Source of the DNA: a virus
Taxonomy: Duplodnaviria; Heunggongvirae; Uroviricota; Caudoviricetes
Length of the DNA: 49,836 nucleotides
Reading direction: 5' to 3' (one strand)
Virus record (IMG/VR): IMGVR_UViG_2563366803_000005
Span: 1-49,836 of that record
In this document: positions 1-20,212 of the stretch, piece by piece
Position numbering within the stretch: position 1 is the first letter of the stretch
How the letters are laid out: the number at the start of each line of letters is the position of its first letter
The notes under the pieces: generated by a model
What the model was told of the DNA's origin: nothing
The model's input: only the letters and a program-made list of their open reading frames with translations
Databases searched by the model: none
Translations under genes and position numbers: made by a program

Positions 1-1119
1 TCAAATAACCAGCTTAACCCATTCCTGACCTCGAGTATCGTTATAGCGATCGGTGGTTGCCTGGACTTTATGTCCTAGTAATGTTTTTGTATCGATACCC
101 TGTGCACGGTACAGCCGTTCTGATAGAGAGCGTTGTTCATGAAATGTTGGCGGAGTTTTTCCTGCTGGTGGAATTATCCCAGCCAGATCCCGTGCTTTGG
201 CAAAGTAGTCGCTCAGGTTGTCTTTACTCATCGGCTTCGGTTGTTTCTGGTGCCGACTATGGATTAGATATGGACTTAATATTCTGTCTCGGCACCCATC
301 AATAACTTCTTTTAACGTTATCCCAATGGCATCACAGCGTAGTGTAAGCGGTAACGCCAGACGCATTCCGGTTTTTCCCTGGGTGATATGCAAGTGTTCG
401 TTCCACACATCTGAAAAACGCATGTGGCAAATGTCATCACGGCGCTGACCAGTAACAATCGCAAGAAGCATTGCGTTACGGATAAAGTGTTTTTCAGGCG
501 TTGCATTGTAAATTTTTTGCCAGTCTTCCATGGTGAGCCTGGCTCTGGTTACTTTAGGGATCGGTTTACGGGTAGCCTCCGGAGGATTCCATCCAGGAGG
601 AACTTCCCCTGCATGCTGTGCTTCTTTATAAATATCAACCCATAATCCACGATTTACTCTCGCTGTGCTGACCATGTCTTTATCCAGCCACTCATCCAGT
701 ATTAATGCAAAGTCTCTTACTTCCAGTTCTTTCAATGGGTGGTTTCCCAGACGGGAAACCAGGTATGCAGCCATTCGAGTTTTTTCTTTGTGAGTTGTAG
801 CTGCAATATCTCCATTTTTCAGTCGCGTGTCCTGTATTTTCAGATATCGATCAACCCATGCCTTTAATCTGATACCCCGACGTTTTGTTGCTGACGGACT
901 TTCATCAATTTTGCGCATGAAATATTCAGCTTCTGCTGCAGCTATTCGCTGATTGGCTGTGGAAGCGATTTTTTCTGCCTTACCTTTGTCTGTTCCGAGT
1001 CCGTGAAATTTTCCAGTCACAGGATTTTTATACTGGTAGTAAACTCTGCCAGTTCTGCGATCAAACTTTTCGTAAAGACCGGCTACGTCAGTGCTGTTTT
1101 TTCGTGGCCTCGGTGACAT
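1..1119 (-). CDS. int: Phage integrase, tyrosine recombinase (lambda Int-like)
   Basis: 372-aa ORF, complete (stop at 1-3). N-terminal arm-binding-like region and C-terminal catalytic region with conserved R/H/Y context (…GHKVQATTDRYND…). First gene of the prophage, overlapped by the xis-like ORF. Confidence 0.85.
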   Translation of the reverse strand: MSPRPRKNSTDVAGLYEKFDRRTGRVYYQYKNPVTGKFHGLGTDKGKAEKIASTANQRIAAAEAEYFMRKIDESPSATKRRGIRLKAWVDRYLKIQDTRLKNGDIAATTHKEKTRMAAYLVSRLGNHPLKELEVRDFALILDEWLDKDMVSTARVNRGLWVDIYKEAQHAGEVPPGWNPPEATRKPIPKVTRARLTMEDWQKIYNATPEKHFIRNAMLLAIVTGQRRDDICHMRFSDVWNEHLHITQGKTGMRLALPLTLRCDAIGITLKEVIDGCRDRILSPYLIHSRHQKQPKPMSKDNLSDYFAKARDLAGIIPPAGKTPPTFHEQRSLSERLYRAQGIDTKTLLGHKVQATTDRYNDTRGQEWVKLVI

Positions 1120-1357
1120 GAGTTAAAATCTCCTTCAGTGCATCATCATCGCCAGTATGAATTTCCGGCGCAATTCCCGTTTCACCAGGCCCAACAAATA
1201 CTGCTCGGCGATCTATCAGCCAACGCCCACGAATTTTTTGTGGTCTTGGAACGATGTATCCTAGTTTTCCGTATTTCACCAGGGTAGTGTTTGTTATTGG
1301 GAGACTGAACCGTTTTGGTTTCCACTCGTCGAGCGTTATCAGGTACTGTTCGCTCAT
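1088..1357 (-). CDS. xis: Excisionase-like small DNA-binding protein
   Basis: About 89 aa starting MSEQYLITLDEW… from ATG at 1357 (GGAG about 9 nt upstream; the track start at 1366 is GTG). Overlaps the int start by about 30 nt, the usual xis-int arrangement. Confidence 0.6.
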   Translation of the reverse strand: MSEQYLITLDEWKPKRFSLPITNTTLVKYGKLGYIVPRPQKIRGRWLIDRRAVFVGPGETGIAPEIHTGDDDALKEILTHVTEATKKQH

Positions 1358-1418
1358 GGCTATCACTCCGGAACGCGCCAGTTGCAGAATATCAACGACA
1401 ACTGGCGACGGTTGAACA

Positions 1419-3857
1419 TTAAAAATCAGCCTGACTCGGGATCAGTTTTTGCCAGATAACTGAAACGTATTTTGCCTGGTAACGGGCGTCATCAAGTGCA
1501 TTATGGCGCTCACCTTCGAATGGAATAGCCGTTCTGGCATCGAAGTCTATGGCTTTCCCCAGCTCAACGATTGTGCGTACATCTCGATCGTTGTAGTAAC
1601 GCCACGGGCAGGGGATCCCCTGCCGTTCGTATGAACGGCGCAAAATCGTGTTGTCGAAGTTGGCTCCATTTCCCCAGACCTGAACAAAAAATTCACCGGA
1701 GTTTTCGTCGATAAATTCCCGCAATTGTAACAGTGCATCATCTAACGGGATTTCATCGGTCATAATGGCAGATTGCGCTTCGCGTGATTGCTTAAGCCAC
1801 CATTTAATGGTGTCCCGATCAATGACCCCGCCAGCAGTTTCCAGATCGATAGTCTTACTAAATTCCGGTCCCATATCTCCGGTTTGCGGATCGAAAAATA
1901 TTGCACCTATTGAGATGATCGGGGCATCAGGATTTTTTCCCATGGTTTCAAGGTCGATCATTAGATGGTCACACGTCCTGCTGGTGGATGTGATAACGTG
2001 ATGACCGTTCACCGTAATTAAGGGATCTGCCGTCTCGCCAGTTTCACTATCGCTGGCGTGATCCTGAGCGCTGCCAGCATTCTCCTTGTGTGGATGTTCA
2101 GCGCCTTCCATTTCCTTCGGATCATTTTCCTGAACTTCAACCTGATTCTCTTCATCGAATGTTTCCTGGTATGTTGCGTCGCCCATCACCGCGCCACAAT
2201 CAGGGCAGTTGCCGCCGCCGGTCTGACCGCAGGCTGTGCAGATCTTTTCCGGTTCCTGTTGCACTACTGGTTCAGGTTGTTTCGTTTCTGGCTCGTTTTG
2301 TAACGCATTTGGGCTGTTTTGTTCCGCTTTCTGGTCGTTCTGTTCCGATTCTTGCTGGTTCTGGTTTACAGAATCGCGGGTTTCAATCCCCTTTACCCAT
2401 TTCGGATCATTCGGGTCGCTAATCCCTGCAACAAATTCTCCGCGAGAGGCAGCAAGCAACTTATCGGCGTCAGGCTGGCTGATATTGGCTGCCTGCATAA
2501 TTTTGTTTACTTCGTCAGCGGTAACTTTTACCTGTGACTTGTCATCCAGCGGCTGCGGGTCCTGATGATGTTCAACTGTATCCGCTGCCATTGTTTCAGC
2601 CGTTGCCTGTTCATCTGCCATTGCGCCAGATGGTTGCGGGTTATCTTCATCATTTTTTTCTTCTTCTGTTTTGCACTCAGCAGCCAGTCCGCCGTTAATT
2701 TCTTCCAGGATATCTTTTTCCGGTGTATGCCGGGCAGCCATGAGCGTTTCAGCTGTGGGATTCTCGTGATCAGTTTCTGTCAGGTTGGCATTGATATACC
2801 CCTGAAGGCGCCCCGGGTAGTGATAAAACTCAGGGTGGGCGCTTCGGATAAGTGCAAAAATAGCTGCGCGGGAATAGTCCAGGATACCAGGGGTTGCGCG
2901 AAGTGCTGCGGACCATTCCCTGAACGGACTTTCTTTTTTCAGGACGATTTCTTTTGCGCGACGATAAACGCTGCCCGGAATTTCATAAATATTAAAATCC
3001 ATCGGAAGTGTGGCTGCTGCAATCTCCACATCCAGCGCATCGAAGGTGTGTACTAAATTCGGATTGCGATCGGTTTTGTTCCCGCCACCGGCATTTGCAC
3101 CGGAAGCCGTACGGGTGATACGCGAAACACGATTTCCTTTCATCCACTCTTTTGTCAGCAGACCCCGATCAGTGTAATCAGCGTCCAGGTATGCCTCGAA
3201 AAAAGCAGTTATCAGTCCCAGGTCTGAATTACCGGGATTAGGGAAAACTTTGTCAGTGTCGCGTACCAGTTTGTGAAGGTCGCGAATCTCCAGCGGGTCG
3301 AGCAGCTTTGTTTTGTGAGAAATGGCCAGGGCAGTAACAGCCGGCAGTTCTTCCGCCCGTGCTATATGTAATGCCTGAAGTTCTTCCCGTGCAACGTGCG
3401 TTACTGGTTTTTCGCTGCTGTGTTGCGCAAGCCAGCGAATGGGCAGCTCCTGACCAGAAACCGGCAGGAGCATATTCTCCTCAATCTCCGTCATGTCTTC
3501 GCCGTTGACGTTGGTATTGTCAGTACTGGCTGGTTTCTCCTGCACGGAGGGAGAGGGCGCGATAAATACCATTGTAATGCCATCTTCCCCGCCTTTTTCG
3601 TATCGGTTGCAGAATTCGGTATCAAACACGCCTTCAGGTGGAAGGTCATTCACAACGGGTAAATGGACGCGAACGGGTTTTTTAAAGTCGTCTTCATCAT
3701 AATCGTTGTCATCCATTGCGGTAATGCAGCGGGAGATGGCAACAGATAATTTTTTTGCTGTAGTCCAGTAAAAACCACCTTTAATTCCCAGACGTTTTCT
3801 GACTTTGTCATTTTTTGCTTCGCAATATAGCGCAAATTCTTCTTTATCAGTGCTCAT
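1419..3857 (-). CDS. Large phage exonuclease with C-terminal DnaQ-like (DEDDh) 3'-5' exonuclease domain
   Basis: 812 aa. C-terminal about 180 aa has DEDDh motifs (…MIDLETMG…, …[13 protein letters not shown]…, …[10 protein letters not shown]…). Middle is an acidic Q/E-rich low-complexity segment with a CxxC-x7-CxxC zinc ribbon ([16 protein letters not shown]). N-terminal domain unassigned. Confidence 0.75.
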
Positions 3858-3949
3858 TGATAAACCTCATTACAGATTTAAGGGTGAACAAATCCCTGCC
3901 ATTGCTGGCATTTTTAATCCGTTGGTATGGTGTTAATATGGCTGGAGGG

Positions 3950-4138
3950 TTATCCAGCCGGTGTTTCGTTATTCAGGTACAGCGATACTTTTTTTACCGG
4001 GAGGCATTCACCAGAAATTTTTTGCTCGTCTCTTGCCTGGAGGCAGGATTCTTTACTGGCATAAATTCCGGTAATCACATTCTGTGATTCACCCGTTATA
4101 AGAAAAACCGTCATCATCAGTGCAAATGCTGAAGTCAT
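3950..4138 (-). CDS. Hypothetical small protein with hydrophobic N-terminus (moron)
   Basis: 62 aa; start overlaps stop of the upstream ORF (ATGA at 4135-4138). N-terminal hydrophobic stretch (TSAFALMMTVFLITG), two Cys. AT-rich region. Confidence 0.35.
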   Translation of the reverse strand: MTSAFALMMTVFLITGESQNVITGIYASKESCLQARDEQKISGECLPVKKVSLYLNNETPAG

Positions 4139-4323
4139 TGACGCTCTCCGAAAATACCAAGTTCAAGAAGAGCAATTCGGGAAAGTATGGAATTATCATT
4201 GAGCAGATAAGGCTCATATTTCCTCATATTAATGGCATCTTCAGTAAACTCCCGGTTACTGAGCAGAACACCAATATCAAAACAACCTTCAGACGTATTA
4301 ACGTTTGGTAATAACGTTTCCAT
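4135..4323 (-). CDS. Hypothetical small protein (moron)
   Basis: 62 aa; GAGG RBS about 9 nt upstream of ATG at 4323; translationally coupled to the next ORF; AT-rich. Confidence 0.4.
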   Translation of the reverse strand: METLLPNVNTSEGCFDIGVLLSNREFTEDAINMRKYEPYLLNDNSILSRIALLELGIFGERQ

Positions 4324-4898
4324 TATCGCGTCCTCAACAATGAATTTTGTGATGCAGTGCCTGGTGCCTCCAGGTGACGTTAACCAGTTAACAATTAACG
4401 CCGGGTTAGTTGATGCTCGTTACGCCAGTAAAAGACCGCCTTACTGCTTTAACTGTTCCGCGTGCGCTCAGCCGCATTCACCGCATCACAAAATTCACTT
4501 TAAAAAGGGCGGCAGAGCAGTCACGGAGTAAAACTGATACCGCCAAACGTCACCAGAAAATTGATAACAGAGGGCGTTGCAGCGGGGTTGTCACTTAAGC
4601 GTATGGTCAACCTGACAACCCGGTGTCCTCAACGGGGGAAGGAATAACCCCGCCATATTTACCGCCGCGCCATTTCGCGGATTGCCACAACCGGAAGCGC
4701 ACGGTCGACGAAAATTTAACGACAGGCTATCTATGAACCAGCTACCTCGCCGTACGCTTTCGCGTTATGGTCTGACTTTTCAGGGAAATATCCTTTCAGT
4801 AAACTGTCAGTGCCGGATTCTTATCCGTGTCCGGCGCACGACCACACGCTGTCACGAGAGGTCTCCATTCTCAACCAGTAACCTCAATGGAGGATAAA

Positions 4899-5093
4899 AT
4901 GTCAGAGCAGGAGTTAAAACTTGGTGCATGTTATTGTGTTCTCAAGGAGCTGGTACACATGCTTCCATCTACTCAGTATCAACAGTTAGTTGGCAATTTA
5001 AATCAGCGAATCGAAGCTATGTTAAAATCTGATGGTTTTAATAACGTAGAAACGCTGATGCTAAAAAGATATCTTGATGGATTAATCAGATAA
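4899..5093 (+). CDS. Hypothetical small protein
   Basis: 64 aa (MSEQELKLGACYCV…). GGAGG RBS 5 nt upstream of ATG 4899. Plus strand, inside an otherwise minus-strand early-left region. Confidence 0.35.
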   Translation: MSEQELKLGACYCVLKELVHMLPSTQYQQLVGNLNQRIEAMLKSDGFNNVETLMLKRYLDGLIR

Positions 5094-5309
5094 CATTTTT
5101 TTACGGCGTTCATATTCGTTAATATTTATGAAGCCTGTTGCCAGAAGCAGTTCGTTAATTTCATGGTTGTTTGGCTGTTTCTGGCTCTTTGAACTGGGAT
5201 CTTCCACTTCTTTTTCTGCAAATTGTTTTGCTGTATCCTCTGTGCCATGGATATTTAAAGCTGTATCTGAAAACAGCCCAGTAAACGCATCGCGCACATT
5301 GCGAGCCAT
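5082..5309 (-). CDS. Hypothetical protein, possibly the 3' part of a frameshifted gene
   Basis: 75-aa ORF. A separate 54-codon ORF (MEFKDLPPSIQEIAAHTLRHRLNELELESVTKK…) starts at 5419 in a frame offset by one; the two meet at an A6 run (plus-strand T6 at about 5322-5327). Confidence 0.3.
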   Translation of the reverse strand: MARNVRDAFTGLFSDTALNIHGTEDTAKQFAEKEVEDPSSKSQKQPNNHEINELLLATGFININEYERRKKMLSD

Positions 5310-5430
5310 ATTATCAGTGTCTTTTTTGTTACCGATTCCAATTCAAGTTCGTTCAGACGATGACGAAGTGTGTGTGCTGCAATCTCCTGGATTGAAGGAG
5401 GTAAATCTTTAAATTCCATCGTCAACCTCA

Positions 5431-5670
5431 TCAGTCAGTGTTTCTTGCTAACCAGCGATGCGCACCAGCTGCGGTTTTAAACGTTTTACTTTTGGTATAC
5501 GTCATCGCGGTGAAGGTGCCGTCCTGGTTAGGGAACACACCGCATACCAGAGATTCGTTGTTGCCAAGATTGAGCGTATCCATGTTGACCTCATTTCCCC
5601 TTAACGCCGGGGTAGCGGAACAAAAAACCTGCTGCGCTGTTATACAAAGTGTTCCCGCCGTCATGTTCAT
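5431..5670 (-). CDS. Hypothetical protein, first ORF downstream of the candidate leftward promoter
   Basis: 79-aa ORF at the position lambda N occupies relative to pL. No arginine-rich motif recognised; coding status uncertain. Confidence 0.25.
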   Translation of the reverse strand: MNMTAGTLCITAQQVFCSATPALRGNEVNMDTLNLGNNESLVCGVFPNQDGTFTAMTYTKSKTFKTAAGAHRWLARNTD

Positions 5671-5761
5671 ACGCCTCGGGCTGGCTACTTAACCCCTGAC
5701 CACTGCCGGGTAACTCGAAGTATTTCCCTGCGTTCTGTGGGGCGGGGTGGGTTGGTATTTT

Positions 5762-5789
5762 AGTTTAATAAACATTAAACTTAAGTCAA
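5762..5789 (-). promoter_or_regulatory. Candidate leftward early promoter (pL-like)
   Basis: On the minus strand: TTGACT (plus 5784-5789), 16-nt spacer, TAAACT (plus 5762-5767). Flanked by CATTAAAC / AACTAAAC motifs resembling the CACTAAAC repeats at 6759-6824. Confidence 0.3.
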
Positions 5790-5873
5790 GTAAAAACTAA
5801 ACCGCGGGGCATAACAAACACAACGCTTTTGATAAAGTCGTTGCGGTTGTTATGTTTCTATTGGTAGTGAAAG

Positions 5874-6152
5874 TTAGGGAAACTGGCGTCTTGCGTGGAT
5901 CACGTTTACTACTTCAACGCTTGATGTTGTTACGCGGTATAGAATTATATAGTTAGGGTGGGCTACAATCTCACGCAAGCCAGGTACTCTGTCGCTTGGT
6001 GGGTATAAATACGGATGTTCGGATAACGGCAGCACACAACCCCTTAATCGCTGCCATAAGCGTTCAGCCGCATCTATGTCGAAACGAGCAATATAACTAG
6101 TTATATCATCTAGGTCGGTATCTGCGCTTTCAAGCCATAACACGGGTAACAT
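5874..6152 (-). CDS. parE: Type II toxin, ParE/RelE family
   Basis: 92 aa from ATG at 6152 (MLPVLWLESADTDLDDITSYIARFDIDAAERLWQ…HPNYIILYRVTTSSVEVVNVIHARRQFP), ParE-like length and C-terminal pattern. Start lies 1 nt after the antitoxin stop. Confidence 0.75.
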   Translation of the reverse strand: MLPVLWLESADTDLDDITSYIARFDIDAAERLWQRLRGCVLPLSEHPYLYPPSDRVPGLREIVAHPNYIILYRVTTSSVEVVNVIHARRQFP

Positions 6153-6153
6153 T

Positions 6154-6345
6154 TTACTGCTTGCTCCGTTCCTTACGCATCTTAGCAAAGCGTTCTGCCA
6201 TTCTGCGCTCAACTTCGTCATGGGGAATTGCTGGGCGCGGATCTGCAAGGCTCGTTGCTACTTTCGCACGCAGCCATTCGTTGTAACTGTTTTCTTGTTC
6301 AATGGTTTCAAATTCAGAAACCATTGGTGAAAGGGCTCTATTCAT
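6154..6345 (-). CDS. paaA: Small antitoxin (PaaA2-like) of a three-gene regulator-antitoxin-toxin operon
   Basis: 63 aa (MNRALSPMVSEFETIEQENSYNEWLRAKVATSLADPRPAIPHDEVERRMAERFAKMRKERSKQ). GGAGG RBS upstream of ATG 6345. Sits directly upstream of the ParE-like gene; size matches the described 63-residue PaaA2. Confidence 0.65.
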   Translation of the reverse strand: MNRALSPMVSEFETIEQENSYNEWLRAKVATSLADPRPAIPHDEVERRMAERFAKMRKERSKQ

Positions 6346-6365
6346 GTTTCCTCCGGTTTTATAAC

Positions 6366-6737
6366 TCAGGCGCGGCGGCATTTTTGCGCCGCAATCCATC
6401 TCGCTATGAGATCTTCCATTGATTCTTTTTTCTGCTTTAACTCGCTGATTATCTGGCGTTGCTCATCCTCAGGGAAGGCTGAAAAAATCTGCAATAATTC
6501 CAGTTGATTAGACGTTAACCCTGCATGTGGTGGAGAAACCCCCGGTTGTTCTGCGTATTCCGCATCCAGATACCCTTCCGGCATCCCGTATGTTTGCTCT
6601 ATTCTTCTGGCAGCCTTTTCTCCAAACGAGGCTCTCCCACTCATTAGTTGAGATAGGTAGCTCTTCTCTTTGGGTGGCAGAGTTTTATCTTTAAACCACT
6701 CCTTGAGACGTAAACGGCGAATTTCTTTTTTTTGCAT
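6366..6737 (-). CDS. paaR: HTH transcriptional repressor (CI/DicA-like; PaaR-like regulator) in the immunity position
   Basis: 123 aa from ATG 6737 (MQKKEIRRLRLKEWFKDK…). N-terminal HTH and DicA-like C-terminus (…LELLQIFSAFPEDEQRQI…). Divergent from the Cro-like gene across a 97-bp repeat-containing region. Confidence 0.75.
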   Translation of the reverse strand: MQKKEIRRLRLKEWFKDKTLPPKEKSYLSQLMSGRASFGEKAARRIEQTYGMPEGYLDAEYAEQPGVSPPHAGLTSNQLELLQIFSAFPEDEQRQIISELKQKKESMEDLIARWIAAQKCRRA

Positions 6738-6834
6738 GTGGTAATTATCTTTAGTAATCACTAAACAAGCAAATACTTGACTTAATGGTTTATTAAACAC
6801 TAAACTCGCAAAAAAACACTAAACCGAGGAAGGT
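6738..6834. promoter_or_regulatory. Divergent operator/promoter region with three CACTAAAC repeats
   Basis: CACTAAAC at 6759-6766, 6798-6805 and 6817-6824. Candidate rightward promoter TTGACT (6777-6782), 18-nt spacer, TAAACT (6801-6806), its -10 overlapped by repeat 2. RBS GAGGAAGG before ATG 6835. Confidence 0.5.
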
Positions 6835-7137
6835 ATGACATTAAAAGAGTTTATTAAATCATTAAGGGTTGGTGATGCTAAGAAATTCGCGGCCAGACTT
6901 GGTGTATCGCCATCTTACTTATCGCAAATGGCGTCTGGACGAACAGCTATATCTCCAACCCGCGCCCTTATGATCGAATCTGCGACGGAAGGCCAAGTAA
7001 GTAGGGCGGAGCTACGACCCCATGATTGGGAGCTTATTTGGCCTGAGTATGCGAGCGGCATTCGTTTGGGGCAAACACATGTAGTTCATGCTGAAGGTGA
7101 TTGTAGTACATGCTTATCTGATGGAGTTGATTCATGA
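6835..7137 (+). CDS. Cro-like HTH regulator (YdaS-like)
   Basis: 100 aa with HTH (…AARLGVSPSYLSQMASGRTAISP…). First rightward gene, divergent from the repressor. Confidence 0.65.
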   Translation: MTLKEFIKSLRVGDAKKFAARLGVSPSYLSQMASGRTAISPTRALMIESATEGQVSRAELRPHDWELIWPEYASGIRLGQTHVVHAEGDCSTCLSDGVDS

Positions 7138-7559
7138 AAATCAAGCATGAACACATCCGCATGGCGATGAATGTCTGGGCGCATCCGGACGGCGAAAAAG
7201 TACCGGCTGCGAAAATTACCAAAGCGTATTTCGAGCTGGGAATGACGTTCCCGGAACTGTATGACGACAGCCATCCGGAAGCCCTGGCCCGTAATACCCA
7301 GAAAATTTTCCGTTGGCTGGATAAAGACACCCCTGATGCTGTTGAAAAAATGCAGGCTCTGTTACCGGCGATCGAAAAGGCGATGCCGCCTTTGCTGGTG
7401 GCCCGTATGCGCAGCCACAGTTCTGAATATTACCGTGAGATCGTCGAACGGAGGGATCGGCTGGTGAAGGATGTCGATGATTTTGTTGCGTCAGCGGTTG
7501 TTTTGTATGACCAGATGAATCGCGGCGGCCCGGCAGGGAATGCTGTGGTGATGCACTAA
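7134..7559 (+). CDS. CII-like / YdaT-family early regulatory protein
   Basis: 141 aa; ATGA overlap with the Cro-like gene; position and size match YdaT-like proteins in Rac-type prophages. Confidence 0.5.
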   Translation: MKIKHEHIRMAMNVWAHPDGEKVPAAKITKAYFELGMTFPELYDDSHPEALARNTQKIFRWLDKDTPDAVEKMQALLPAIEKAMPPLLVARMRSHSSEYYREIVERRDRLVKDVDDFVASAVVLYDQMNRGGPAGNAVVMH

Positions 7560-7581
7560 AAGCACGGTGTTCGGGGGTTTT

Positions 7582-8544
7582 ATGAGCAGCAAGCTTCATG
7601 GTCTTGTCTGGGAAGGGTGCGCCTTCACCGGCATGATCTTATCCAGGGTGGCGGTTATGGCCCGTCTTGCAGACTACAGCAATGACGAGGGTGTGTCATG
7701 GCCTGCCATTGAAACTATCCGGCGTCAGATCGGTGCAAGAAGTGAATCCACAGTGAAATCGGCTATTGCAGAACTGGCGAAAGAGGGCTGGCTGACGAAG
7801 GAAGAGCGTAAGGTCGGTGGGCGTAATGTAAGCAATATCTATCGGCTTAATGTGGAAAAACTCGAAGCAGCTGCGGCGGCGGCGCGTGAGTCATATAAAC
7901 CGAAAAGAAAAATTAGCCCGGCAAAAAATGACCCGTTAACAGTTGACCCGTCAAATATTGACCCCTCAACGGTTGACCCGTCAAATTTTGATGGATCAAC
8001 TGTTGATAAAAAACTGCCGATTAGGGGGGCGATGATTGACCCCGATCCGTCAGTATTAAAACCTGATCCGTCAGATAAAAGATCTTCTTGTCCGGACGCT
8101 TCGCAACCGGACCCGCAGACGGCTGAACAGGATTTTTTAACCCGACACCCTGACGCGGTTGTGTTCAGTGCGAAAAAACGCCAGTGGGGAAGTCAGGAAG
8201 ATTTGGTGTGCGCACAGTGGATCTGGGGACGAATCGTGAGTCTTTACGAGCAGGCGGCCAGCTATGATGGCGAGATCACTAGACCGAAAGAACCCAACTG
8301 GACAGCATGGGCCAATGACGTTCGCACAATGCGGATGCTGGATGGCAGAACTCACAGACAAATTTGTGAAATGTTTGGGCGTCTCCAGCGGGATTCGTTC
8401 TGGGTAAAAAACATCATGAGTCCGGCAAAACTCCGGGAAAAATGGGATGAACTGGTTATCCGCCTGGGGCGTTCGCCTGCGCAGCGTTGCGTGAATCACA
8501 TTTCTGAACCGGACACTGAAATACCGCCGGGATTCAGGGGGTGA
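7582..8544 (+). CDS. Replication initiation protein (lambda O-like) with internal iterons
   Basis: About 320 aa. N-terminal wHTH-like region; the central peptide repeat DPLTVDPSNIDPSTVDPSNFDGSTVD is encoded by DNA iterons; C-terminal domain. Followed by a DnaC-like loader. Confidence 0.7.
   Translation: MSSKLHGLVWEGCAFTGMILSRVAVMARLADYSNDEGVSWPAIETIRRQIGARSESTVKSAIAELAKEGWLTKEERKVGGRNVSNIYRLNVEKLEAAAAAARESYKPKRKISPAKNDPLTVDPSNIDPSTVDPSNFDGSTVDKKLPIRGAMIDPDPSVLKPDPSDKRSSCPDASQPDPQTAEQDFLTRHPDAVVFSAKKRQWGSQEDLVCAQWIWGRIVSLYEQAASYDGEITRPKEPNWTAWANDVRTMRMLDGRTHRQICEMFGRLQRDSFWVKNIMSPAKLREKWDELVIRLGRSPAQRCVNHISEPDTEIPPGFRG
7929..8080. repeat. Putative replication origin: iterons (TTGACCCNTCAA) within the O-like gene
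   Basis: Direct repeats tgacccgttaac (7929-7940), ttgacccgtcaaat (7943-7956), ttgacccctcaac (7958-7970), ttgacccgtcaaat (7973-7986); further gatccgtcag repeats at about 8036-8075. Confidence 0.55.
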
Positions 8545-8550
8545 CGTGTC

Positions 8551-9297
8551 ATGAAAAACATTGCGGCAGTTGGGGTTCTTGAACGTATTCGCAGACTTGC
8601 ACCACAGGGGTCGGTTCCACCGTACCGGACGGTGGAGGAGTGGCGGGAATGGCAACTTGCTGAAGGACGAAAACGCAGCGAGGAGATTAACCGCCAGAAT
8701 CGCCAGTTGCGGGTGGAAAAAATCCTGAATCGTTCGGGCATCCAGCCTCTGCACAGCAAATGCTCGTTTGCAAATTATCAGGTGCAGAACGACGGGCAAA
8801 AATACGCGCTGAGCCAGGCCAAATCCATAGCTGACGAACTGATGACCGGGTGCACGAATTTTGTGTTCAGCGGTAAAACCGGCACCGGGAAAAATCACCT
8901 TGCAGCGGCGATGGGCAACCGGCTGATGGTGAAGGGGCGCAGCGTGATTATCGTCACCGTGTCTGACGTCATGAGCGTGTTGCATGACAGCTACGACAAC
9001 GGCAAATCCGGGGAAAAATTTTTACAGGAGCTTTGCGGGGTTGATTTGCTGGTCCTGGATGAAATAGGCGTTCAGCGGGAGACGAAAAACGAGCAGGTGG
9101 TATTGCACCAGATAATTGATCGCCGGACAGCATCACTGTGCAGTGTCGGGATGTTAACAAACCTGAATCATGCCGCAATGAGTACGCTTCTTGGTGAGAG
9201 GATTATGGACCGCATGACCATGAACGGTGGTCGATGGGTGACGTTTAACTGGGATAGCTGGCGTCCAAATGTCAGCAATATGAGGGTTGTGAAGTAA
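8551..9297 (+). CDS. DnaC-like replicative helicase loader (AAA+ ATPase)
   Basis: 248 aa. Walker A GKTGTGKNHLAAA, Walker B LLVLDEIG. Immediately downstream of the O-like gene. Confidence 0.85.
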   Translation: MKNIAAVGVLERIRRLAPQGSVPPYRTVEEWREWQLAEGRKRSEEINRQNRQLRVEKILNRSGIQPLHSKCSFANYQVQNDGQKYALSQAKSIADELMTGCTNFVFSGKTGTGKNHLAAAMGNRLMVKGRSVIIVTVSDVMSVLHDSYDNGKSGEKFLQELCGVDLLVLDEIGVQRETKNEQVVLHQIIDRRTASLCSVGMLTNLNHAAMSTLLGERIMDRMTMNGGRWVTFNWDSWRPNVSNMRVVK

Positions 9298-9318
9298 TTT
9301 TGTCCGGAGGAAATTTTA

Positions 9319-10089
9319 ATGGAAACCGTATCTGACGCACTGAAAGCACTGAAAAAAGCCTCTTCACATGTGGTGGCAGCTCGCCTTGGAATCAGTCGTG
9401 AAGAGGCTGTCAACGAGCTGTGGGAACTCAAAAGAAAAGGCGTCGTTGATAAAACTGGTCACACCTGGTTTCTAGCTGGCGAAGGTGAATCCCGGGTAAC
9501 CGAAGAGCGGCCAGTAAAATCTGAAGCACAGGATATGCTGACCGGGGAGGTCGAACAAAAAGTTACCGCAGACATGATGATTGAGTTTATCGGTCAGGAT
9601 GGGGCTAAAACGTGTGAGGAACTGGCGGGTAAGTTCGGTGTCAGTACTCGCAAGGTTGCTTCCACGCTGGCGGTGGTAACCGCAACGGGGCGGCTGGCAC
9701 GCGTTAATCAGAACGGTAAATTTCGTTACTGCATGCCGGGCGATAATTTACCAGCAGAGCCGAAAGCCGCTCTGGTAACGGAAAGTGATGGTAAGGCCTT
9801 TCCTCAGCCAGCAGGTGCTGCGTTACCAGTCCGGGAAGCCGCAACACAGGAAGAAATTAAAACAGAAACTGTGGCGGACATTGTGCAGCCGTTGCCATCG
9901 TTTACCGAAACGCAAGCAGATGAGCTGATTTTTCCGTCCCTTCGCAGGGCAAACCTGGCGCTGCGCAGGGCGAAAAGTGATGTTCAGAAGTGGGAGCGAG
10001 TCTGCGCCGCGCTGCGGGAGCTGAACAAGCACCGGGATATTGTTCGACAGATTACTGATTCTTCCCGCCGTGTTGTATCGGAAAAGTGA
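9319..10089 (+). CDS. Hypothetical protein with two winged-helix-like segments
   Basis: 256 aa; RBS GGAGG upstream; function not recognisable from sequence. Confidence 0.5.
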   Translation: METVSDALKALKKASSHVVAARLGISREEAVNELWELKRKGVVDKTGHTWFLAGEGESRVTEERPVKSEAQDMLTGEVEQKVTADMMIEFIGQDGAKTCEELAGKFGVSTRKVASTLAVVTATGRLARVNQNGKFRYCMPGDNLPAEPKAALVTESDGKAFPQPAGAALPVREAATQEEIKTETVADIVQPLPSFTETQADELIFPSLRRANLALRRAKSDVQKWERVCAALRELNKHRDIVRQITDSSRRVVSEK

Positions 10090-10104
10090 TTGCCGGAGGC
10101 GCTT

Positions 10105-10437
10105 ATGGCAAAAGTATTTACACAAGAAGAGCGGGAAAAAATTAAAGGGCAGGTTGTTGAACTTGTACGTCTGAGCGGTCGCGAGACGTTGCGGCAACTG
10201 GAAGCCAAGACAGGTGCGACAAGATATCTGATGAGTGTTCTCGCCAGAGAGCTGGTTGCCAGTGGCGATGTATACAACTCTGGTTACGGGTTATTCCCGT
10301 CTGAACAGGCGCGTAAGGACTGGCAAAACGCCCGCAAAAAACTCTCAAGGGCAAATCTGAAGAAACCATCTGTGGTTGATCCTGACCTTATCTGGTCATT
10401 ACCAGACGGAGAAATACGCCGCTACGACAGGCGTTAA
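10105..10437 (+). CDS. Hypothetical protein
   Basis: 110 aa from ATG 10105 (MAKVFTQEEREKIKG…); CCGGAGG RBS. Confidence 0.5.
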   Translation: MAKVFTQEEREKIKGQVVELVRLSGRETLRQLEAKTGATRYLMSVLARELVASGDVYNSGYGLFPSEQARKDWQNARKKLSRANLKKPSVVDPDLIWSLPDGEIRRYDRR

Positions 10438-10573
10438 AACATAATCTGTAGCGAGTGCCGGAAGAGCGAAGCTATGCAGCGTGTACTGGCTTTCTATCAG
10501 GGTAATTTTCAGAAGGTGCTGTTGTGAGCCAAATTAACAATCGGAACTTCGTGAAGAGAAAGCATAATCCAAA

Positions 10574-10624
10574 TCTGAATAATTAAGTTCAGCACTGTAA
10601 ATAAAATTTAATCCTTAACTGGAG
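10574..10624 (+). repeat. Copy A of a ~50-bp repeated regulatory element (palindrome + RBS)
   Basis: CTGAATAATTAAGTTCAGCACTGTAAATAAAATTTAATCCTTAACTGGAGG; about 85% identical to copy B at 11842-11890. Contains inverted repeat ATTAAgTT…AAtTTAAT; ends in the SD for the ORF at 10633. Confidence 0.55.
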
Positions 10625-10632
10625 GTATATCT

Positions 10633-10845
10633 ATGTCAAATACACAGAAAATTATTAACACTGAAAAATATAACGAGTGGGTGAAAAAATTCTCTGAGCA
10701 GATTTTTAAAATTACTGGCGACGAGAATGTGGCAAAAAATGAATTAGAACCGTGGACACCTGAAGGAAACGCACCAAATTATTGCTGGTGGGAGGTTGAT
10801 CCGGTTGATGCTGCAAATGAAGCCATGAGTTACCACAACGATTAA
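10633..10845 (+). CDS. Hypothetical small acidic protein
   Basis: 70 aa; GGAGG RBS 7 nt upstream; follows repeat copy A. Confidence 0.45.
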   Translation: MSNTQKIINTEKYNEWVKKFSEQIFKITGDENVAKNELEPWTPEGNAPNYCWWEVDPVDAANEAMSYHND

Positions 10846-10854
10846 TGTCGGGAG

Positions 10855-10872
10855 GCCGCCCGAAAGGGCGGT
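10855..10872 (+). promoter_or_regulatory. SD-hairpin-AUG element (CCGCCC-GAAA-GGGCGG stem-loop), copy 1
   Basis: GGGAGG (10850-10855), 6-bp G/C stem with GAAA tetraloop, then ATG at 10878. The same 22-nt element recurs at 11915-11936. Confidence 0.5.
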
Positions 10873-10877
10873 AAGAA

Positions 10878-11096
10878 ATGACTACATTATTGAGAAAAGA
10901 ATATCCGCAAAAAAGTAGGGCAACAGAATTTTTGTTTCTCATTCTGTTTATCGTATTGATGATACCGATATCCCCTCTAATTTTTGTCTGGGCAATCGGG
11001 AAAATAATTGAGCCAGTTACTGAATTGTATACCGACGTTGTATGGGCGTCGTTCAACATACTGCACAATAAAATTAATCCGTATAAGGAAAACTGA
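10878..11096 (+). CDS. Hypothetical small membrane protein
   Basis: 72 aa with a long hydrophobic segment (FLFLILFIVLMIPISPLIFVWAIG); start preceded by the hairpin element. Confidence 0.45.
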   Translation: MTTLLRKEYPQKSRATEFLFLILFIVLMIPISPLIFVWAIGKIIEPVTELYTDVVWASFNILHNKINPYKEN

Positions 11097-11097
11097 T

Positions 11098-11361
11098 ATG
11101 GCAACTTTGACAAAAAAAGAACGGGCATGGTTGAACGAATTACAGGAAGTTCTTGATCGCTGTCCATCACCGAAAAAAATTGGCTTTTACACCATTGGCG
11201 ATAAAAGCATTTACCTGTATGACCTACGCCGCATGGATGAAATCATGGAGGCTCTTGATAATCGTTCGTCGATGGATTGGTGTGTTGCTGTTCATGATAT
11301 GAATGCAGGGTTTGATGAAAAGATTTTGTTCCCCTCATCAGTTGAAAGCACTGCGGGTTAA
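11098..11361 (+). CDS. Hypothetical protein
   Basis: 87 aa from ATG 11098 (MATLTKKERAWLNELQEVL…); AAGGAAA RBS; ATG 1 nt after the upstream stop. Confidence 0.5.
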   Translation: MATLTKKERAWLNELQEVLDRCPSPKKIGFYTIGDKSIYLYDLRRMDEIMEALDNRSSMDWCVAVHDMNAGFDEKILFPSSVESTAG

Positions 11362-11371
11362 GGAGTAACAC

Positions 11372-11515
11372 ATGACCACTATTACCAAAGAACGTATTGA
11401 ATTGTTCATTAAATTTTCAGGAGGCGGTACTGTGAGTGAAATTAGCTATCAGGCTTCAATTACCGCTGGCATTCGCATCAAAGGAGAGGAGCATGGAAAT
11501 AAAACCAGAGGATGA
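11372..11515 (+). CDS. Possible 47-aa micro-ORF
   Basis: Strong RBS AAGGAG 7 nt before ATG 11372 (MTTITKERIELFIKFSGGG…); overlaps the next gene start in another frame. Below the ORF-track length cutoff. Confidence 0.3.
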   Translation: MTTITKERIELFIKFSGGGTVSEISYQASITAGIRIKGEEHGNKTRG

Positions 11516-11849
11516 GTTAAGCAATATCGTTTTATTTCCGGTAAAAGAGGATGACCCTCGTAATCAGGTTAATTTTCTTTATGAGCCATCGGAAAGACCA
11601 TATTGTCATCACGCCTCTGTCCGGGTTGACGAAAAAGAGCGTCAGGTCCGCTGTAAAATCTGCGGTGCAGTTGTGGAGCCATTTGACTGGATGCTCTCTG
11701 TGGCGAAAAGAGAAACCAGACTGGCAGATGATGTAAGGCACTTGCGCCAGGAGGAGCGGGAAAGGCGAAAAAATATAGAAAAGCTAATTCAGATTGAGCG
11801 TAACGCGAAAGCGCGGATACGCAGGGCGACAAAATCCAGAACTGAATAA
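11493..11849 (+). CDS. Hypothetical protein with putative zinc-ribbon (CHH…CKIC)
   Basis: 118 aa from ATG 11493; AAGGAGAGGAG RBS; Cys/His cluster YCHHASVRVDEKERQVRCKICG; basic C-terminus. Confidence 0.5.
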   Translation: MEIKPEDELSNIVLFPVKEDDPRNQVNFLYEPSERPYCHHASVRVDEKERQVRCKICGAVVEPFDWMLSVAKRETRLADDVRHLRQEERERRKNIEKLIQIERNAKARIRRATKSRTE

Positions 11850-11890
11850 TTAAATTTAGCTCTGTTAAAAATTTAATCCTTAACCGGAGG
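11842..11890 (+). repeat. Copy B of the ~50-bp repeated regulatory element
   Basis: CTGAATAATTAAATTTAGCTCTGTTAAAAATTTAATCCTTAACCGGAGG, with perfect inverted repeat ATTAAATTT-N12-AAATTTAAT. Confidence 0.55.
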
Positions 11891-11918
11891 GATTTCTGCA
11901 CCCTCAGAACATCAGGAG

Positions 11919-11936
11919 GCCGCCCGAAAGGGCGGT
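11919..11936 (+). promoter_or_regulatory. SD-hairpin-AUG element, copy 2
   Basis: AGGAGG then CCGCCC-GAAA-GGGCGG, then ATG at 11943. Confidence 0.5.
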
Positions 11937-11942
11937 AGTTAA

Positions 11943-12125
11943 ATGCGAAAGTTTAAAATAATTATTGAAACGGGAATAGCCGGTGGAGATTTCGAGGATG
12001 AATTCGAAGTGGATGATGATGCGACGCCTGATGAAATACATGACGAAGCAAAAGATATTTTCTTTAACTACTGCAATTACTCATATCACGAAATAAAAGA
12101 CGAAGAGGAAGAGCAAAATGGCTGA
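11943..12125 (+). CDS. Hypothetical very acidic 60-aa protein
   Basis: About one third Asp/Glu (…DFEDEFEVDDDATPDEIHDE…EIKDEEEEQNG). Confidence 0.4.
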   Translation: MRKFKIIIETGIAGGDFEDEFEVDDDATPDEIHDEAKDIFFNYCNYSYHEIKDEEEEQNG

Positions 12126-12294
12126 TTTTGGTTCAACTAAATACAACGTCAGTTTTGAAGCATGGCATGAACTGTTAATGGACTATGCAGAGTTACGTGG
12201 TGGCAGTGCTGCTGATGCTGAAGCATGGCGTGATGATTATGAAGCAGGAAAAACTCCGGTCGAAGCATATTGTGATGAGTGGGGCGATGAATGA
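12118..12294 (+). CDS. Hypothetical acidic 58-aa protein
   Basis: MADFGSTKYNVSFEAWHELLMDYAELRGG…; overlaps the upstream stop and downstream start (ATGA at 12291-12294). Below the ORF-track length cutoff; found by reading the DNA. Confidence 0.4.
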   Translation: MADFGSTKYNVSFEAWHELLMDYAELRGGSAADAEAWRDDYEAGKTPVEAYCDEWGDE

Positions 12295-12680
12295 GCGAGA
12301 TTAATTATCAGGAAGGGCATGAAACGGCAGGGCAGGCAAAACCAGTTGCATGGCGATATCGCTACGTGAAAAAAGACGTTACAGACTTTCAGGGGAAGCC
12401 GTGGGCTGGTGACTGGAAATATGTACCGACAAAAGAGGATTGTAACGACAGGCCGAACTATGAAATTCAGGCCTTATTCATCGGCCCGCCAGTCCCGGTG
12501 ACATCAGAAGGACTGGTTAAAGCCGTGCGCTTTTATGAACAGGTAAAGCGTGAGAATCCGCCAGTCGAAACAGGAGCATGGAAGGATGCTGTTGACTGGG
12601 TGCTCAGAGAGGCCTGCTGCGCTGCCATTCTGGGTAAGCCGACAATCCACCAGCATCCGGCAATCAGGTTAGCGAATTAA
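12291..12680 (+). CDS. Hypothetical protein
   Basis: 129 aa; translationally coupled to neighbours; no recognisable motif. Confidence 0.5.
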   Translation: MSEINYQEGHETAGQAKPVAWRYRYVKKDVTDFQGKPWAGDWKYVPTKEDCNDRPNYEIQALFIGPPVPVTSEGLVKAVRFYEQVKRENPPVETGAWKDAVDWVLREACCAAILGKPTIHQHPAIRLAN

Positions 12681-12682
12681 CA

Positions 12683-12805
12683 ATGTGGGTTAAACGACTG
12701 GTCAGTCAACTGAAAAAAGCTCAGCCGGACTGCAAATTACCGGAGAAGGCGATGGATTACCTGAAACGAAATGGACTGATAAGCGTGGAGGATGTTTTAC
12801 GATGA
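12683..12805 (+). CDS. Possible 40-aa micro-ORF
   Basis: ATG 12683 two nt after the upstream stop (MWVKRLVSQLKKAQPDCKLPEKAMDYLKRNGLISVEDVLR). Confidence 0.25.
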   Translation: MWVKRLVSQLKKAQPDCKLPEKAMDYLKRNGLISVEDVLR

Positions 12806-12925
12806 ATATTTAGACTAAAGAGTTTGTAACGCTATGTAAGTGATTTTTTCTGGTTTAGATATTTATATGTCCGGCCAAATTGAGGTGTGTTTAAATGTTA
12901 TTGCACATTGATTGTAGGGGGAATA

Positions 12926-13105
12926 ATGAAAAACGCATTGCAGTTTTTGTTTGTTGCGTTCTGGTTGTTCGCATCATGTATGCCCATCATCTTCACAGCA
13001 AGGTATATGGAAAAAATTGATGTTTTGATATTAATGTTTGGACATATAAATGCCCTTTTTTTAGGGGTGTTCATGGCGGTCATGTGCATTGAATACTGGC
13101 GGTAA
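12926..13105 (+). CDS. Hypothetical small membrane protein
   Basis: 59 aa from ATG 12926 (MKNALQFLFVAFWLFASCMPIIF…); RBS AGGGGGA; two hydrophobic segments; AT-rich. Confidence 0.4.
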   Translation: MKNALQFLFVAFWLFASCMPIIFTARYMEKIDVLILMFGHINALFLGVFMAVMCIEYWR

Positions 13106-13363
13106 ATACAGCGAACGCCATTGGTTTAGTTGGATATTTACTGTGCCGGACAAAAACGGTTTGCGGGGAAATCTTAGTTAAGTAGAATGACTGCGGGTGC
13201 TTGAGGCTATCTGTCTCAGGCATGAACACCAAAAGGCAGATAGAGAAAAGCCCCAGTTAACATTACGCGTCCTGCAAGACGCTTAACATTAATCTGAGGC
13301 CATATCTATGCGACACATAGAGATTAGCCTCTTACGGACCGAAAGGTCAAGGAGAAGCAGGCT

Positions 13364-13519
13364 ATGAAGCAGCAAAAGGCGATGTTAATCGCCCTGATCG
13401 TCATCTGTTTAACCGTCATAATGACGGCACTGGTAACGAGGAAAGACCTCTGCGAGGTACGAATCCGAACCGGCCAGACGGAGGTCACTGTCTTCACAGC
13501 TTACGAACCTGAGGAGTAA
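13364..13519 (+). CDS. hok: Hok/Gef-family type I toxin
   Basis: 51 aa (MKQQKAMLIALIVICLTVIMTALVTRKDLCEVRIRTGQTEVTVFTAYEPEE); Hok pattern with one TM helix and LTRK-x-LCE-x-R motif. A 19-codon upstream ORF (13308-13367) ends in ATGA overlapping the hok start. Confidence 0.8.
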   Translation: MKQQKAMLIALIVICLTVIMTALVTRKDLCEVRIRTGQTEVTVFTAYEPEE

Positions 13520-13586
13520 GAGACCAGGCGGGGGAGAATCCCTCGCCACCTCTGATGTGTCAGGCATCCTCAACGCACCCGCACTT

Positions 13587-13616
13587 AACCCGCTTCGGCG
13601 GGTTTTGTTTTTTCCT
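13587..13616 (+). terminator. Rho-independent terminator after hok
   Basis: CCCGC-TTCG-GCGGG hairpin followed by TTTTGTTTTTT. Confidence 0.6.
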
Positions 13617-13685
13617 GGCATTCTGGTTTACAATTCGCACGCCAGCCTGAACAACTGGCACCTGCTGCGCCAGCAGAGACAACCG

Positions 13686-13964
13686 ATGGCGCACGATACC
13701 AAATTACACAATTCTGATGATTCTGCCGTCTTTGCCAGCAGGCACGGGCGGTGTTCCCGCACTTTCAAATCTGACTGGTTCCAGCATCCCCCATGCACTG
13801 AAGAACAGGCCGAATGGCTGATTCATAACTACCGCAGACACGGATACGAGATTAAGAAAGCCCTCAGCCTCGATTATCGTCACTGGATAATCTCCGTCAG
13901 GCTTCCTTACTCCGAACGCCCACCGCGTCCGTCCCGCACATTCCAGCAACGCATCTGGAGGTAA
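13686..13964 (+). CDS. Hypothetical protein
   Basis: 92 aa from ATG 13686 (MAHDTKLHNSDD…); stop 1 nt before the GTG start of the DUF968-like gene. Confidence 0.45.
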   Translation: MAHDTKLHNSDDSAVFASRHGRCSRTFKSDWFQHPPCTEEQAEWLIHNYRRHGYEIKKALSLDYRHWIISVRLPYSERPPRPSRTFQQRIWR

Positions 13965-13965
13965 C

Positions 13966-15015: not shown

Positions 15016-15027
15016 AAGAGGTGACTG

Positions 15028-15387
15028 ATGCTCATAGATTTGGTTTTACCTTACCCGCCGACGGTGAACACTTACTGGCGACGCCGTGGCAGCACATATT
15101 TTATCTCGGAGGAGGGAAAGCGTTATCGCCGGGCTGTGGCGCTTATTGTTCGCCAGCAGCGGCTGAAATTAAGCCTGTCCGGAAGGCTGGCGATAAAGGT
15201 GATTGCAGAGCCACCGGATAAGCGTCGTCGCGACCTGGACAATATCCTGAAAGCACCGCTGGATGCGCTGACGCATGCGGGAGTGTTAATGGACGATGAG
15301 CAGTTTGATGAAATCAATATTGTAGGTGGTCAGCCAGTATCTGGTGGACGGCTGGGTGTGAAGATTTACAAAATTGAGAGTGAGTGA
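15028..15387 (+). CDS. rusA: Holliday-junction resolvase RusA
   Basis: 119 aa with RusA signature (…PPDKRRRDLDNILKAPLDALTHAGVLMDD…). Confidence 0.85.
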   Translation: MLIDLVLPYPPTVNTYWRRRGSTYFISEEGKRYRRAVALIVRQQRLKLSLSGRLAIKVIAEPPDKRRRDLDNILKAPLDALTHAGVLMDDEQFDEINIVGGQPVSGGRLGVKIYKIESE

Positions 15388-15950: not shown

Positions 15951-16026
15951 CGTAAAAACTGCTTCAATTCCGGTACGCTTCGCAAAGCTGTACCACGAGG
16001 CGAATAGCAGACATGGACATTTGAAA

Positions 16027-16052
16027 GAGCCCGCTTTTTGCGGGTTTTTTTA
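16027..16052 (+). terminator. tR'-like rho-independent terminator downstream of the Q-like gene
   Basis: CCCGC-TTTTT-GCGGG hairpin (16030-16044) followed by T7. Confidence 0.6.
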
Positions 16053-16174
16053 TGCCTGAAAAACGGCACAGAACATTAAACGCGCTGGTGGTTGCGAATA
16101 CCGGTCTTTCAGCTTGCTGGCTTTTCCGACAAGAGTTATTGGTATGTTACGTTAACCAGAAAAGGGAAAAAGAC

Positions 16175-20208: not shown

Positions 20209-20212
20209 AGTG

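Follow-up and report, generated by a model that had tools for sequence, protein, structure and literature searches.

Lambdoid phages without a Rec module or an inhibitor of RecBCD have been described as rich in Chi sites, and the growth of phage LLS is improved by RecBCD (PMC12315714). In Table 1 of that study, in which 325 lambdoid phages were analysed (Zheng, Casjens, Davidson, Amundsen and Smith, Genome Res 2025), a class of four phages with Tritos as the prototype has a nuclease, while the single-strand annealing protein (SSAP, there termed SAP), the protein that binds single-stranded DNA (SSB) and the anti-RecBCD function are absent; the Chi counts of this class range from 21/6 to 7/2 (top/bottom strand). 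For the RecE exonuclease of the Rac prophage, the full-length protein improves linear-linear recombination and its N-terminal region enhances it (review, PMC11611040), and a fragment of 102 amino acids (aa), E121-T222, is as effective as full-length RecE in raising homology-directed repair in human cells (PMC12825301). Here, we analysed a gene with features of both systems, found in a viral DNA stretch of 49,836 nucleotides (Caudoviricetes; IMG/VR record IMGVR_UViG_2563366803_000005), referred to below as the window. The gene occupies positions 1419..3857 on the minus strand, exactly where an initial annotation made from the sequence had placed it, and its open reading frame (ORF) starts with ATG and encodes 812 aa. 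No other gene in the leftward early region of this lambdoid E. coli prophage is as large. From the ORF call and the domain matches, the coding sequence joins a RecE-type N-terminal region to a predicted DEDDh 3'-5' exonuclease.

The N-terminal part of the protein had initially been left unassigned; it can now be assigned to RecE. By BLASTP, aa 58-615 (2013..3686, minus strand) aligned with residues 50-592 of the Rac RecE of E. coli K-12 at 58% identity, with long near-identical blocks that extended through the linker and the zinc ribbon described below. When the 812-aa protein was compared with Rac RecE in this way, no similarity was found past RecE residue 592, and the PD-(D/E)XK nuclease domain of RecE (about residues 600-866) gave no tblastn match anywhere in the window. 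The Pfam family Exonuc_VIII (PF06630) was matched at aa 57-189 (3291-3689, minus strand) with an E-value of 2.7e-33 and 116 bits, against a cut-off of 25. The NCBIfam equivalog model for exodeoxyribonuclease VIII (NF007259) aligned aa 1-615 with profile positions 1-603 of 877; with the final third of the model unmatched, the score was 907, below the 1269 required of an equivalog. In the columns conserved among the Citrobacter, Atlantibacter and Salmonella homologues, the best-conserved core of the N-terminal region was located at aa ~225-345 (2823-3185, minus strand), which includes the motif GNRVS..RT.SG.NAGGG..TDR. The extreme N-terminus consists of a small alpha/beta domain at aa 1-100 (3558..3857, minus strand), of which the first ~57 aa are unlike K-12 RecE.

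The RecE-type region also includes an acidic, Q/E-rich, low-complexity linker at aa 376-624 (1986..2732, minus strand), identified by its composition and by the RecE alignment and common to RecE. The composition bears out the earlier description of this linker: Asp and Glu together account for 22% of its residues and Gln for 9%, with a net charge of -38, and the AlphaFold2 (AF2) predicted local distance difference test (pLDDT) score is below 50; within aa 496-539, Gln rises to 23%. The CxxC…CxxC motif that had been noted alongside it is also present, as C540-x2-C543-x7-C551-x2-C554 (aa 540-554; 2196..2240, minus strand). This spacing, CxxC-x7-CxxC, is kept in Rac RecE (CNACGQTGGDNCPDC) and in Tritos gp27. 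The motif occurs in 6 of 57 long representatives of the family and is absent from the Citrobacter and Atlantibacter forms, so that on the sequences compared the putative zinc ribbon is confined to the E. coli-type central module. Its pLDDT in the model is 54-60.

The C-terminal domain (aa 631-802; 1452..1967, minus strand) is a DEDDh exonuclease domain of the DnaQ fold and of the Rv2179c-like/T4 DexA type, as indicated by Pfam, PHROG, PDB and Foldseek matches; the initial assignment of a DnaQ-like exonuclease to this end thus stands. The Pfam Rv2179c-like family (PF16473) was matched over profile positions 2-177 of 177 (E = 1.3e-67; 227.4 bits, cut-off 27), and the PHROG annotated for T4 DexA, phrog_255, was matched with an E-value of 1.5e-78. 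The sole solved relatives found by sequence were the T4 DexA structures 8kel and 8ken (E = 6e-8 for 8kel). All five DEDDh residues are present, namely D635 and E637 (in DLETMG), D735 (in NFD), and H785 and D790 (in HNALDD), and they align with D7, E9, D119, H186 and D191 of DexA. They are conserved in 72-74 of 74 family representatives (50% clustering); the catalytic residues, whose loss on alignment would have spoken against the initial assignment, are therefore intact. The AF2 model of aa 530-812 was of modest quality (mean pLDDT 57.9; 55-88 per 10-residue block inside the domain). With this model, Foldseek retrieved 52 solved DEDDh enzymes at E<=1e-3, headed by RNase T (1.1e-6) and including Cap18, a Cas2-DnaQ domain, Orn, REXO2 and ERI1. 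Very probably, the domain is an active 3'-5' exonuclease.

Since aa 58-615 resemble RecE, nothing resembles RecE beyond its residue 592 and a DEDDh domain stands there instead, the 812-aa protein is best described, on sequence grounds, as a RecE whose nuclease core has been exchanged for a DEDDh exonuclease and whose recT has been lost. The initial annotation had set the gene apart from RecE/RecT modules. That separation is correct as far as the swapped nuclease domain and the lost recT are concerned. It fails for the remainder of the protein, as ~560 residues are homologous to RecE and the gene holds the map position of recE in Rac, upstream of xis and int; together, these two features identify it as a RecE derivative. 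The counterpart of the RecE fragment E121-T222 is also retained, at about aa 132-233, as a nearly identical stretch in the BLASTP alignment. In RecE itself, the N-terminal region has an activity related to recombination that does not depend on the nuclease.

The absence of a Bet/RecT/Erf-type partner, noted at the outset, was borne out at each level of searching. The ORFs between the exonuclease gene and the repressor gene each encode fewer than 145 aa and belong to other families or to no family. Among the small ORFs at 3950-6800, Pfam revealed no SSAP; the families found were DUF1482/YdfD, DicB, DUF1391, a ParE-type toxin, a PaaA2-type antitoxin and a repressor-like protein. No tblastn match to RecT, Bet, Erf, Sak4, lambda Exo, Gam, Abc2 or the SSB of HK620 was obtained in the whole window, and the early-right genes, assigned by PHROGs, were O-like, DnaC-like, Ren-like, HNH (DUF968) and RusA only. 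A cryptic SSAP among the small ORFs or the early-right genes was rejected, as the Pfam and PHROG assignments contained none.

The same result was obtained at 84 related loci, made up of 80 loci on viral contigs and four Pfam-annotated prophage contexts. Up to 10 kb upstream, none of the 84 matched any RecT, Bet, Erf, Sak4, lambda Exo, Gam, Abc2 or SSB seed by tblastn, with Rac as a positive control; these loci are not independent, and a seed-based search could miss a novel annealase. The four annotated contexts (Atlantibacter, Citrobacter freundii, C. koseri and a food metagenome), whose homologues are 45-60% identical, likewise contained no SSAP, SSB or Gam family; their gene order is cI, one to three small ORFs, the exonuclease gene, (xis) and int. 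In nearly all of the 84 loci, the integrase match starts 250-450 bp past the exonuclease stop codon, and the genes keep the order exonuclease-xis-int. Upstream of the exonuclease gene, a DUF1482-like ORF was found in 47 of 65 related loci, the window included. Immediately upstream, 56 of the 65 have a winged-helix ORF of ~112 aa resembling Rrf2, which ends about 140 bp before the exonuclease start (at 8522-8860 in locus L006, for example, and also in L015 and most of the loci L015-L094). This ORF, which is not in the window, may encode a regulator or a DNA-binding partner.

Chi sites (GCTGGTGG) were strongly over-represented in the window, with 14 counted against 2.32 expected and none of 100 shuffles reaching 14. 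All lie within 164..22203, ten on the plus strand and four on the minus strand, and one is inside the exonuclease gene itself (1980-1987, plus strand). By the lambda convention, the ten plus-strand sites are oriented to act on RecBCD that enters at the right cos end. No Chi was found in the remaining 27.6 kb of the window (22204-49836), which, judging from the annotated genome, probably holds the structural genes. All of the sites in the window are thus in the int-to-lysis part, as has been described for 'Rec-less' lambdoid phages. Over the 80 related viral-contig loci (1.02 Mb), the lambda-active orientation accounted for 394 Chi and the reverse orientation for 102 (3.9:1), at one per 2.06 kb; in E. 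coli K-12 there is one per 4.6 kb (Zheng et al., PMC12315714). Among 168 octamers of equal composition, Chi ranked first in these loci, the runner-up being counted 114 times. With no SAP, SSB, Gam or Abc2, ten top-strand Chi and a DEDDh half shared with Tritos, the window is another member of the nuclease-only, Chi-rich class of Tritos.

To place the domain fusion among its relatives, 1.84 billion representative sequences were searched, which gave 11,738 hits at E<=1e-3, and modules were mapped on the best 150. Among these 150, the N-terminal modules (aa 58-260 and 260-395) were joined to a DEDDh domain in at least 17 clusters (50% identity) and to a RecE-type nuclease in about 14 clusters, and they occurred with neither in many others, which are possibly fragments or else the proteins that Zheng et al. 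call 'RecE-2'. In addition, about 50 DEDDh proteins, 180-300 aa long, stood alone and were 42-56% identical to the C-terminal domain. The DEDDh fusions persisted down to 25-30% identity in the N-terminal module, and a profile of the distant fusions yielded homologues in Citrobacter, Atlantibacter and Salmonella; with the full 812-aa protein as the query, only near-identical E. coli copies were returned. As the fusion recurs in at least 17 clusters and several genera, it appears to be maintained rather than accidental. A decaying pseudogene was ruled out, given the intact ORF, the retained catalytic residues and an architecture conserved across genera.

Several variants were observed within the family. 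Citrobacter and Atlantibacter homologues (P0126, P0280, P0299 and similar) carry an extra inserted Exonuc_VIII-like segment, PF06630 being matched twice in P0126. One E. coli variant of 905 aa (P0001) has part of the DEDDh domain duplicated in tandem, which may be an assembly artefact or a duplication. At all loci but one, the arrangement is a simple fusion; on the exception, viral contig L078 (10145-12247 and 15320-15871), a RecE-N-type protein is followed by a weak RecE-nuclease-like segment, and a separate DEDDh domain lies about 3 kb downstream.

Among 5426 complete E. coli genomes, the full gene (>=80% of its length) was present in 1230. The DEDDh segment was found in 4049 (75%), at 8062 places and in up to 7 copies per genome, whereas the canonical RecE nuclease segment was found in 1730. 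The DEDDh form is therefore the majority form in E. coli prophages, far commoner than canonical RecE. The gene is already annotated and extremely common, and the phage class is already in print. The RefSeq record of the protein is WP_000102132.1 ('exonuclease'), and at least 1000 public contigs carry the identical 812-aa sequence, where it is variously called exonuclease, 3'-5' exoribonuclease and exodeoxyribonuclease VIII.

Recombination, anti-defence and an action on host nucleic acids had initially been put forward as possible roles; the context favours a role on DNA that is tied to the host RecBCD pathway. Our tentative preference, held at somewhat less than even weight, is that the protein trims DNA 3' ends in the manner of exonuclease I (ExoI) and so aids recombination by host RecBCD and RecA during lytic growth. 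It would be expressed from the early-left operon upon induction, and we infer that it would act on DNA 3' ends instead of making 3' tails for an annealing protein. With no annealase, no RecBCD inhibitor and an enrichment of correctly oriented Chi, the phage probably leaves to host RecBCD/RecA the recombination from which concatemers are formed. Trimming of unpaired or overhanging 3' strands could either turn the ends into RecBCD substrates or allow invaded strands to prime repair and replication forks, and the RecE-type N-terminal region may deliver the nuclease to DNA ends or regulate it there. The comparison with ExoI draws on published work. This 3'-5' exonuclease is an accessory stimulator in the RecBCD pathway, in which xonA and recJ mutations lower Chi-stimulated recombination, and it promotes the formation of repair forks, probably through trimming of unpaired 3' single-stranded DNA after pairing (PMC8386832). 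Deletion of host ExoI markedly improves annealing-type linear assembly by RecET and Red (PMC13048471). Annealases act on 3' tails, which a 3'-5' exonuclease destroys, and this would explain why an SSAP is never kept by the DEDDh form.

Several points weigh against this preference. DnaQ-like nucleases usually inhibit recombination, and those DnaQ-type nuclease genes that occur sporadically near int, with no recognisable Rec module around them, were left out of the Rec-module genes (Zheng et al., PMC12315714). The Gifsy-1 class in Table 1 of that study, which has RecE and an SAP but no RecBCD inhibitor, is also Chi-rich; Chi enrichment therefore shows the dependence of a phage on RecBCD and not cooperation by this enzyme. 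The 80 loci that gave the 3.9:1 orientation bias are not phylogenetically independent. The C-terminal domain belongs to a Pfam family that takes its name from an exoribonuclease, which makes RNA a possible substrate. A structural search with the N-terminal region gave no informative match, which leaves the delivery role a conjecture, and no published biochemical or genetic test of the 812-aa protein was found in the searchable literature, where the names of the Pfam families also led to no relevant work.

The relationship of the C-terminal domain to DexA also brings in a role in exclusion or defence, in which a prophage-encoded DexA-like exonuclease would degrade the 5-hydroxymethylcytosine (5hmC)-type DNA of incoming T-even phages. 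Such a role has been proposed for EcD ('HREX'), an E. coli DexA homologue that is reported to digest T4 DNA and to protect cells and is proposed to be specific for 5hmC DNA (Kang et al., NAR 2025, PMC12153337). Escherichia accounts for the largest share of the bacterial DexA homologues (PMC12153337), and the presence of the DEDDh segment in three-quarters of complete E. coli genomes would suit a defence gene. We nevertheless regard this role as unlikely. The gene has the placement of recE, beside xis and int within the repressed early-left operon, and not that of a moron; no PADLOC-DB 2.0 family matched it at E<=0.01, so membership of a known anti-phage defence system was rejected. The equivalent of the DexA tetramer residue D90, whose loss defines the proposed defence form, is kept as D707. 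Of the residues proposed to recognise 5hmC in DexA, W152 has Tyr and D169 has Asp at its position in the pairwise alignment, two positions that the family alignment places unreliably. Moreover, defence leaves the fusion to 600 residues of the RecE N-terminus unexplained. That same fusion partner and the map position, both those of a DNA recombination protein, argue against the enzyme being a 3'-5' exoribonuclease or a degrader of oligonucleotides or signal nucleotides, for host takeover or anti-defence. The Rv2179c-like exoribonuclease family is indeed the best Pfam match, and the fold neighbours include RNase T, Orn, REXO2 and the CBASS-associated exonuclease Cap18. However, RNase T also trims DNA, so these neighbours do not discriminate between DNA and RNA, and the closest solved relative by sequence, T4 DexA of the same PHROG, is a deoxyribonuclease. 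An RNA or nucleotide substrate is thus considered improbable.

Two further explanations keep the substrate as DNA. The enzyme could be an anti-recombination or scavenging nuclease that degrades 3' single-stranded tails or host DNA, either lowering RecA loading, SOS and branched DNA or recycling nucleotides, and that promotes no phage recombination. The usual inhibitory effect of DnaQ-family exonucleases would fit this role, at least as Lovett 2011 is cited in PMC12315714, as would the part taken by T4 DexA in host DNA scavenging according to the account in PMC12153337. In several minimal operons, however, the gene is the only large one of the early-left region, which suggests a core lytic function, although this would be compatible with such a nuclease too. 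Degradation of host DNA is not known from lambdoid phages, and this explanation carries a low probability. The least probable of those weighed is an annealing-type, RecET-like role through a partner that escaped recognition, be it a novel small SSAP, the Rrf2-like neighbour, or a RecT or Bet supplied in trans by another prophage. In its favour, the retained N-terminal region is the one that enhances linear-linear recombination in full-length RecE (PMC11611040), recET is also carried by many E. coli genomes (1730), and the Rrf2-like ORF precedes the gene at most of the related loci, 56 of 65. Against it, that ORF is not in the window, and a recognisable SSAP was found in none of the 84 loci, the Pfam-annotated contexts included. 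A 3'-5' exonuclease would also remove the 3' tails of an annealase, as the improvement of RecET and Red assembly on ExoI loss illustrates (PMC13048471), and, if lambda Exo and Red-beta are a guide, the contact of RecE with RecT should be made by the nuclease part, which is missing here.

The DEDDh form tracks Chi-rich lambdoid phages that apparently rely on RecBCD and is therefore a concrete candidate, and one that is easy to delete, for how their recombination-dependent growth is managed. In this form, the N-terminal two-thirds of RecE are followed by a nuclease whose predicted polarity is the opposite one, and an annealase is always absent, from which we infer that the N-terminal region may work independently of the exonuclease-annealase mechanism of RecE/RecT. 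A broader proposal, which at present is doubtful, is that the RecE N-terminal region is a portable platform for interchangeable nucleases (PD-(D/E)XK, DEDDh or none), and that the DEDDh form is a phage ExoI-like factor dedicated to recombination-dependent replication through Chi, RecBCD and RecA. Under this proposal, the 'Rec-less', Chi-rich lambdoid phages would not be passive users of the host pathway but would tune it with a 3'-end-trimming enzyme of their own.

The neighbouring genes are those of a lambdoid early-left region. On the minus strand, the order is a cI-like repressor gene, genes for a ParE/PaaA2-type toxin-antitoxin pair, a DUF1391 (ydfA-like) gene, the DicF small RNA, dicB, a DUF1482 (ydfD-like) gene, the 812-aa gene, xis and int. 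The excisionase gene (1088..1366, minus strand; PF07825 Exc, RefSeq 'excisionase') is directly downstream of the exonuclease gene, and the tyrosine integrase gene (1..1119, minus strand; ORF and RefSeq) marks the prophage end. Upstream lie the ydfD-like lysis-protein gene of the DUF1482 family (3950-4138, minus strand) and dicB (4135-4323, minus strand), both early-left genes identified by Pfam, and then the DicF RNA (4507-4558, minus strand; Rfam, 76.7 bits), which is upstream of dicB. This arrangement of DicF, dicB and a ydfD-like gene directly upstream of the exonuclease gene corresponds to a Qin-type dic region. The ParE/RelE-type toxin (PF05016) and PaaA2-type antitoxin (PF21217) are encoded at 5874-6399 (minus strand), between the repressor-like gene and the dic genes.

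Elsewhere in the window, Rfam scores above gathering were obtained for the sok antitoxin RNA at 13195-13366 (plus strand), part of a hok/sok-type locus of the nin region, and for STnc100 (16527-16731), STnc490 (44485-44608) and IS009 (48549-48747), all on the plus strand. A 100% identical copy of the gene is carried by strain FDAARGOS_536, in a prophage (NZ_CP033762.1, 618802-668726) that interrupts the potABCD operon between potC and potB and whose nin region is unlike that of the window.

Among enzymes of solved structure, the C-terminal domain is closest in sequence to T4 DexA, a DEDDh 3'-5' exonuclease of the same PHROG (255) that is 31% identical over the domain and has all five catalytic residues aligned. 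DexA, however, is a stand-alone protein of 227 aa with extra loops, from a lytic phage with modified DNA. Rv2179c of Mycobacterium tuberculosis, which gave PF16473 its name, belongs to the family that was matched over nearly its full length, but it is a stand-alone chromosomal exoribonuclease and was not retrieved from the PDB by a sequence search with the 812-aa protein. E. coli ExoI, ExoX and RNase T share the predicted polarity, and the DnaQ/DEDDh fold is common to ExoX and RNase T; none of the three has a close sequence relationship or a RecE-type N-terminal region. In ExoI, SH3-like and C-terminal domains are also present.

Rac RecE shares the Exonuc_VIII domain, the acidic linker and the CxxC-x7-CxxC ribbon, and both genes are early-left and close to xis and int. 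The two proteins part at the C-terminus, where RecE has a PD-(D/E)XK 5'-3' core, structured from about residue 606, and the 812-aa protein a DEDDh domain. In Rac, the recT partner is adjacent, whereas the 812-aa gene is followed directly by xis. In BLASTP, the N-terminal ~245 residues of Tritos gp27 do not resemble the 812-aa protein, and the ~90 that follow resemble it only weakly. The K-12 Qin pseudogene ydfE corresponds to the first 256 aa of the Tritos gp27 form, cut by IS2, with gp27 as the intact form; YdfE was accordingly rejected as the closest relative of the N-terminus, its own N-terminus being of the Tritos type and without similarity to that of the 812-aa protein. From about aa 446, by contrast, the C-terminal half of gp27 is nearly identical to that of the 812-aa protein, with a DEDDh domain that is 100% identical. 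Tritos also shares with the window the order dicB-ydfD-exonuclease-xis-int and a Chi-rich genome with neither an SAP nor an anti-RecBCD gene.

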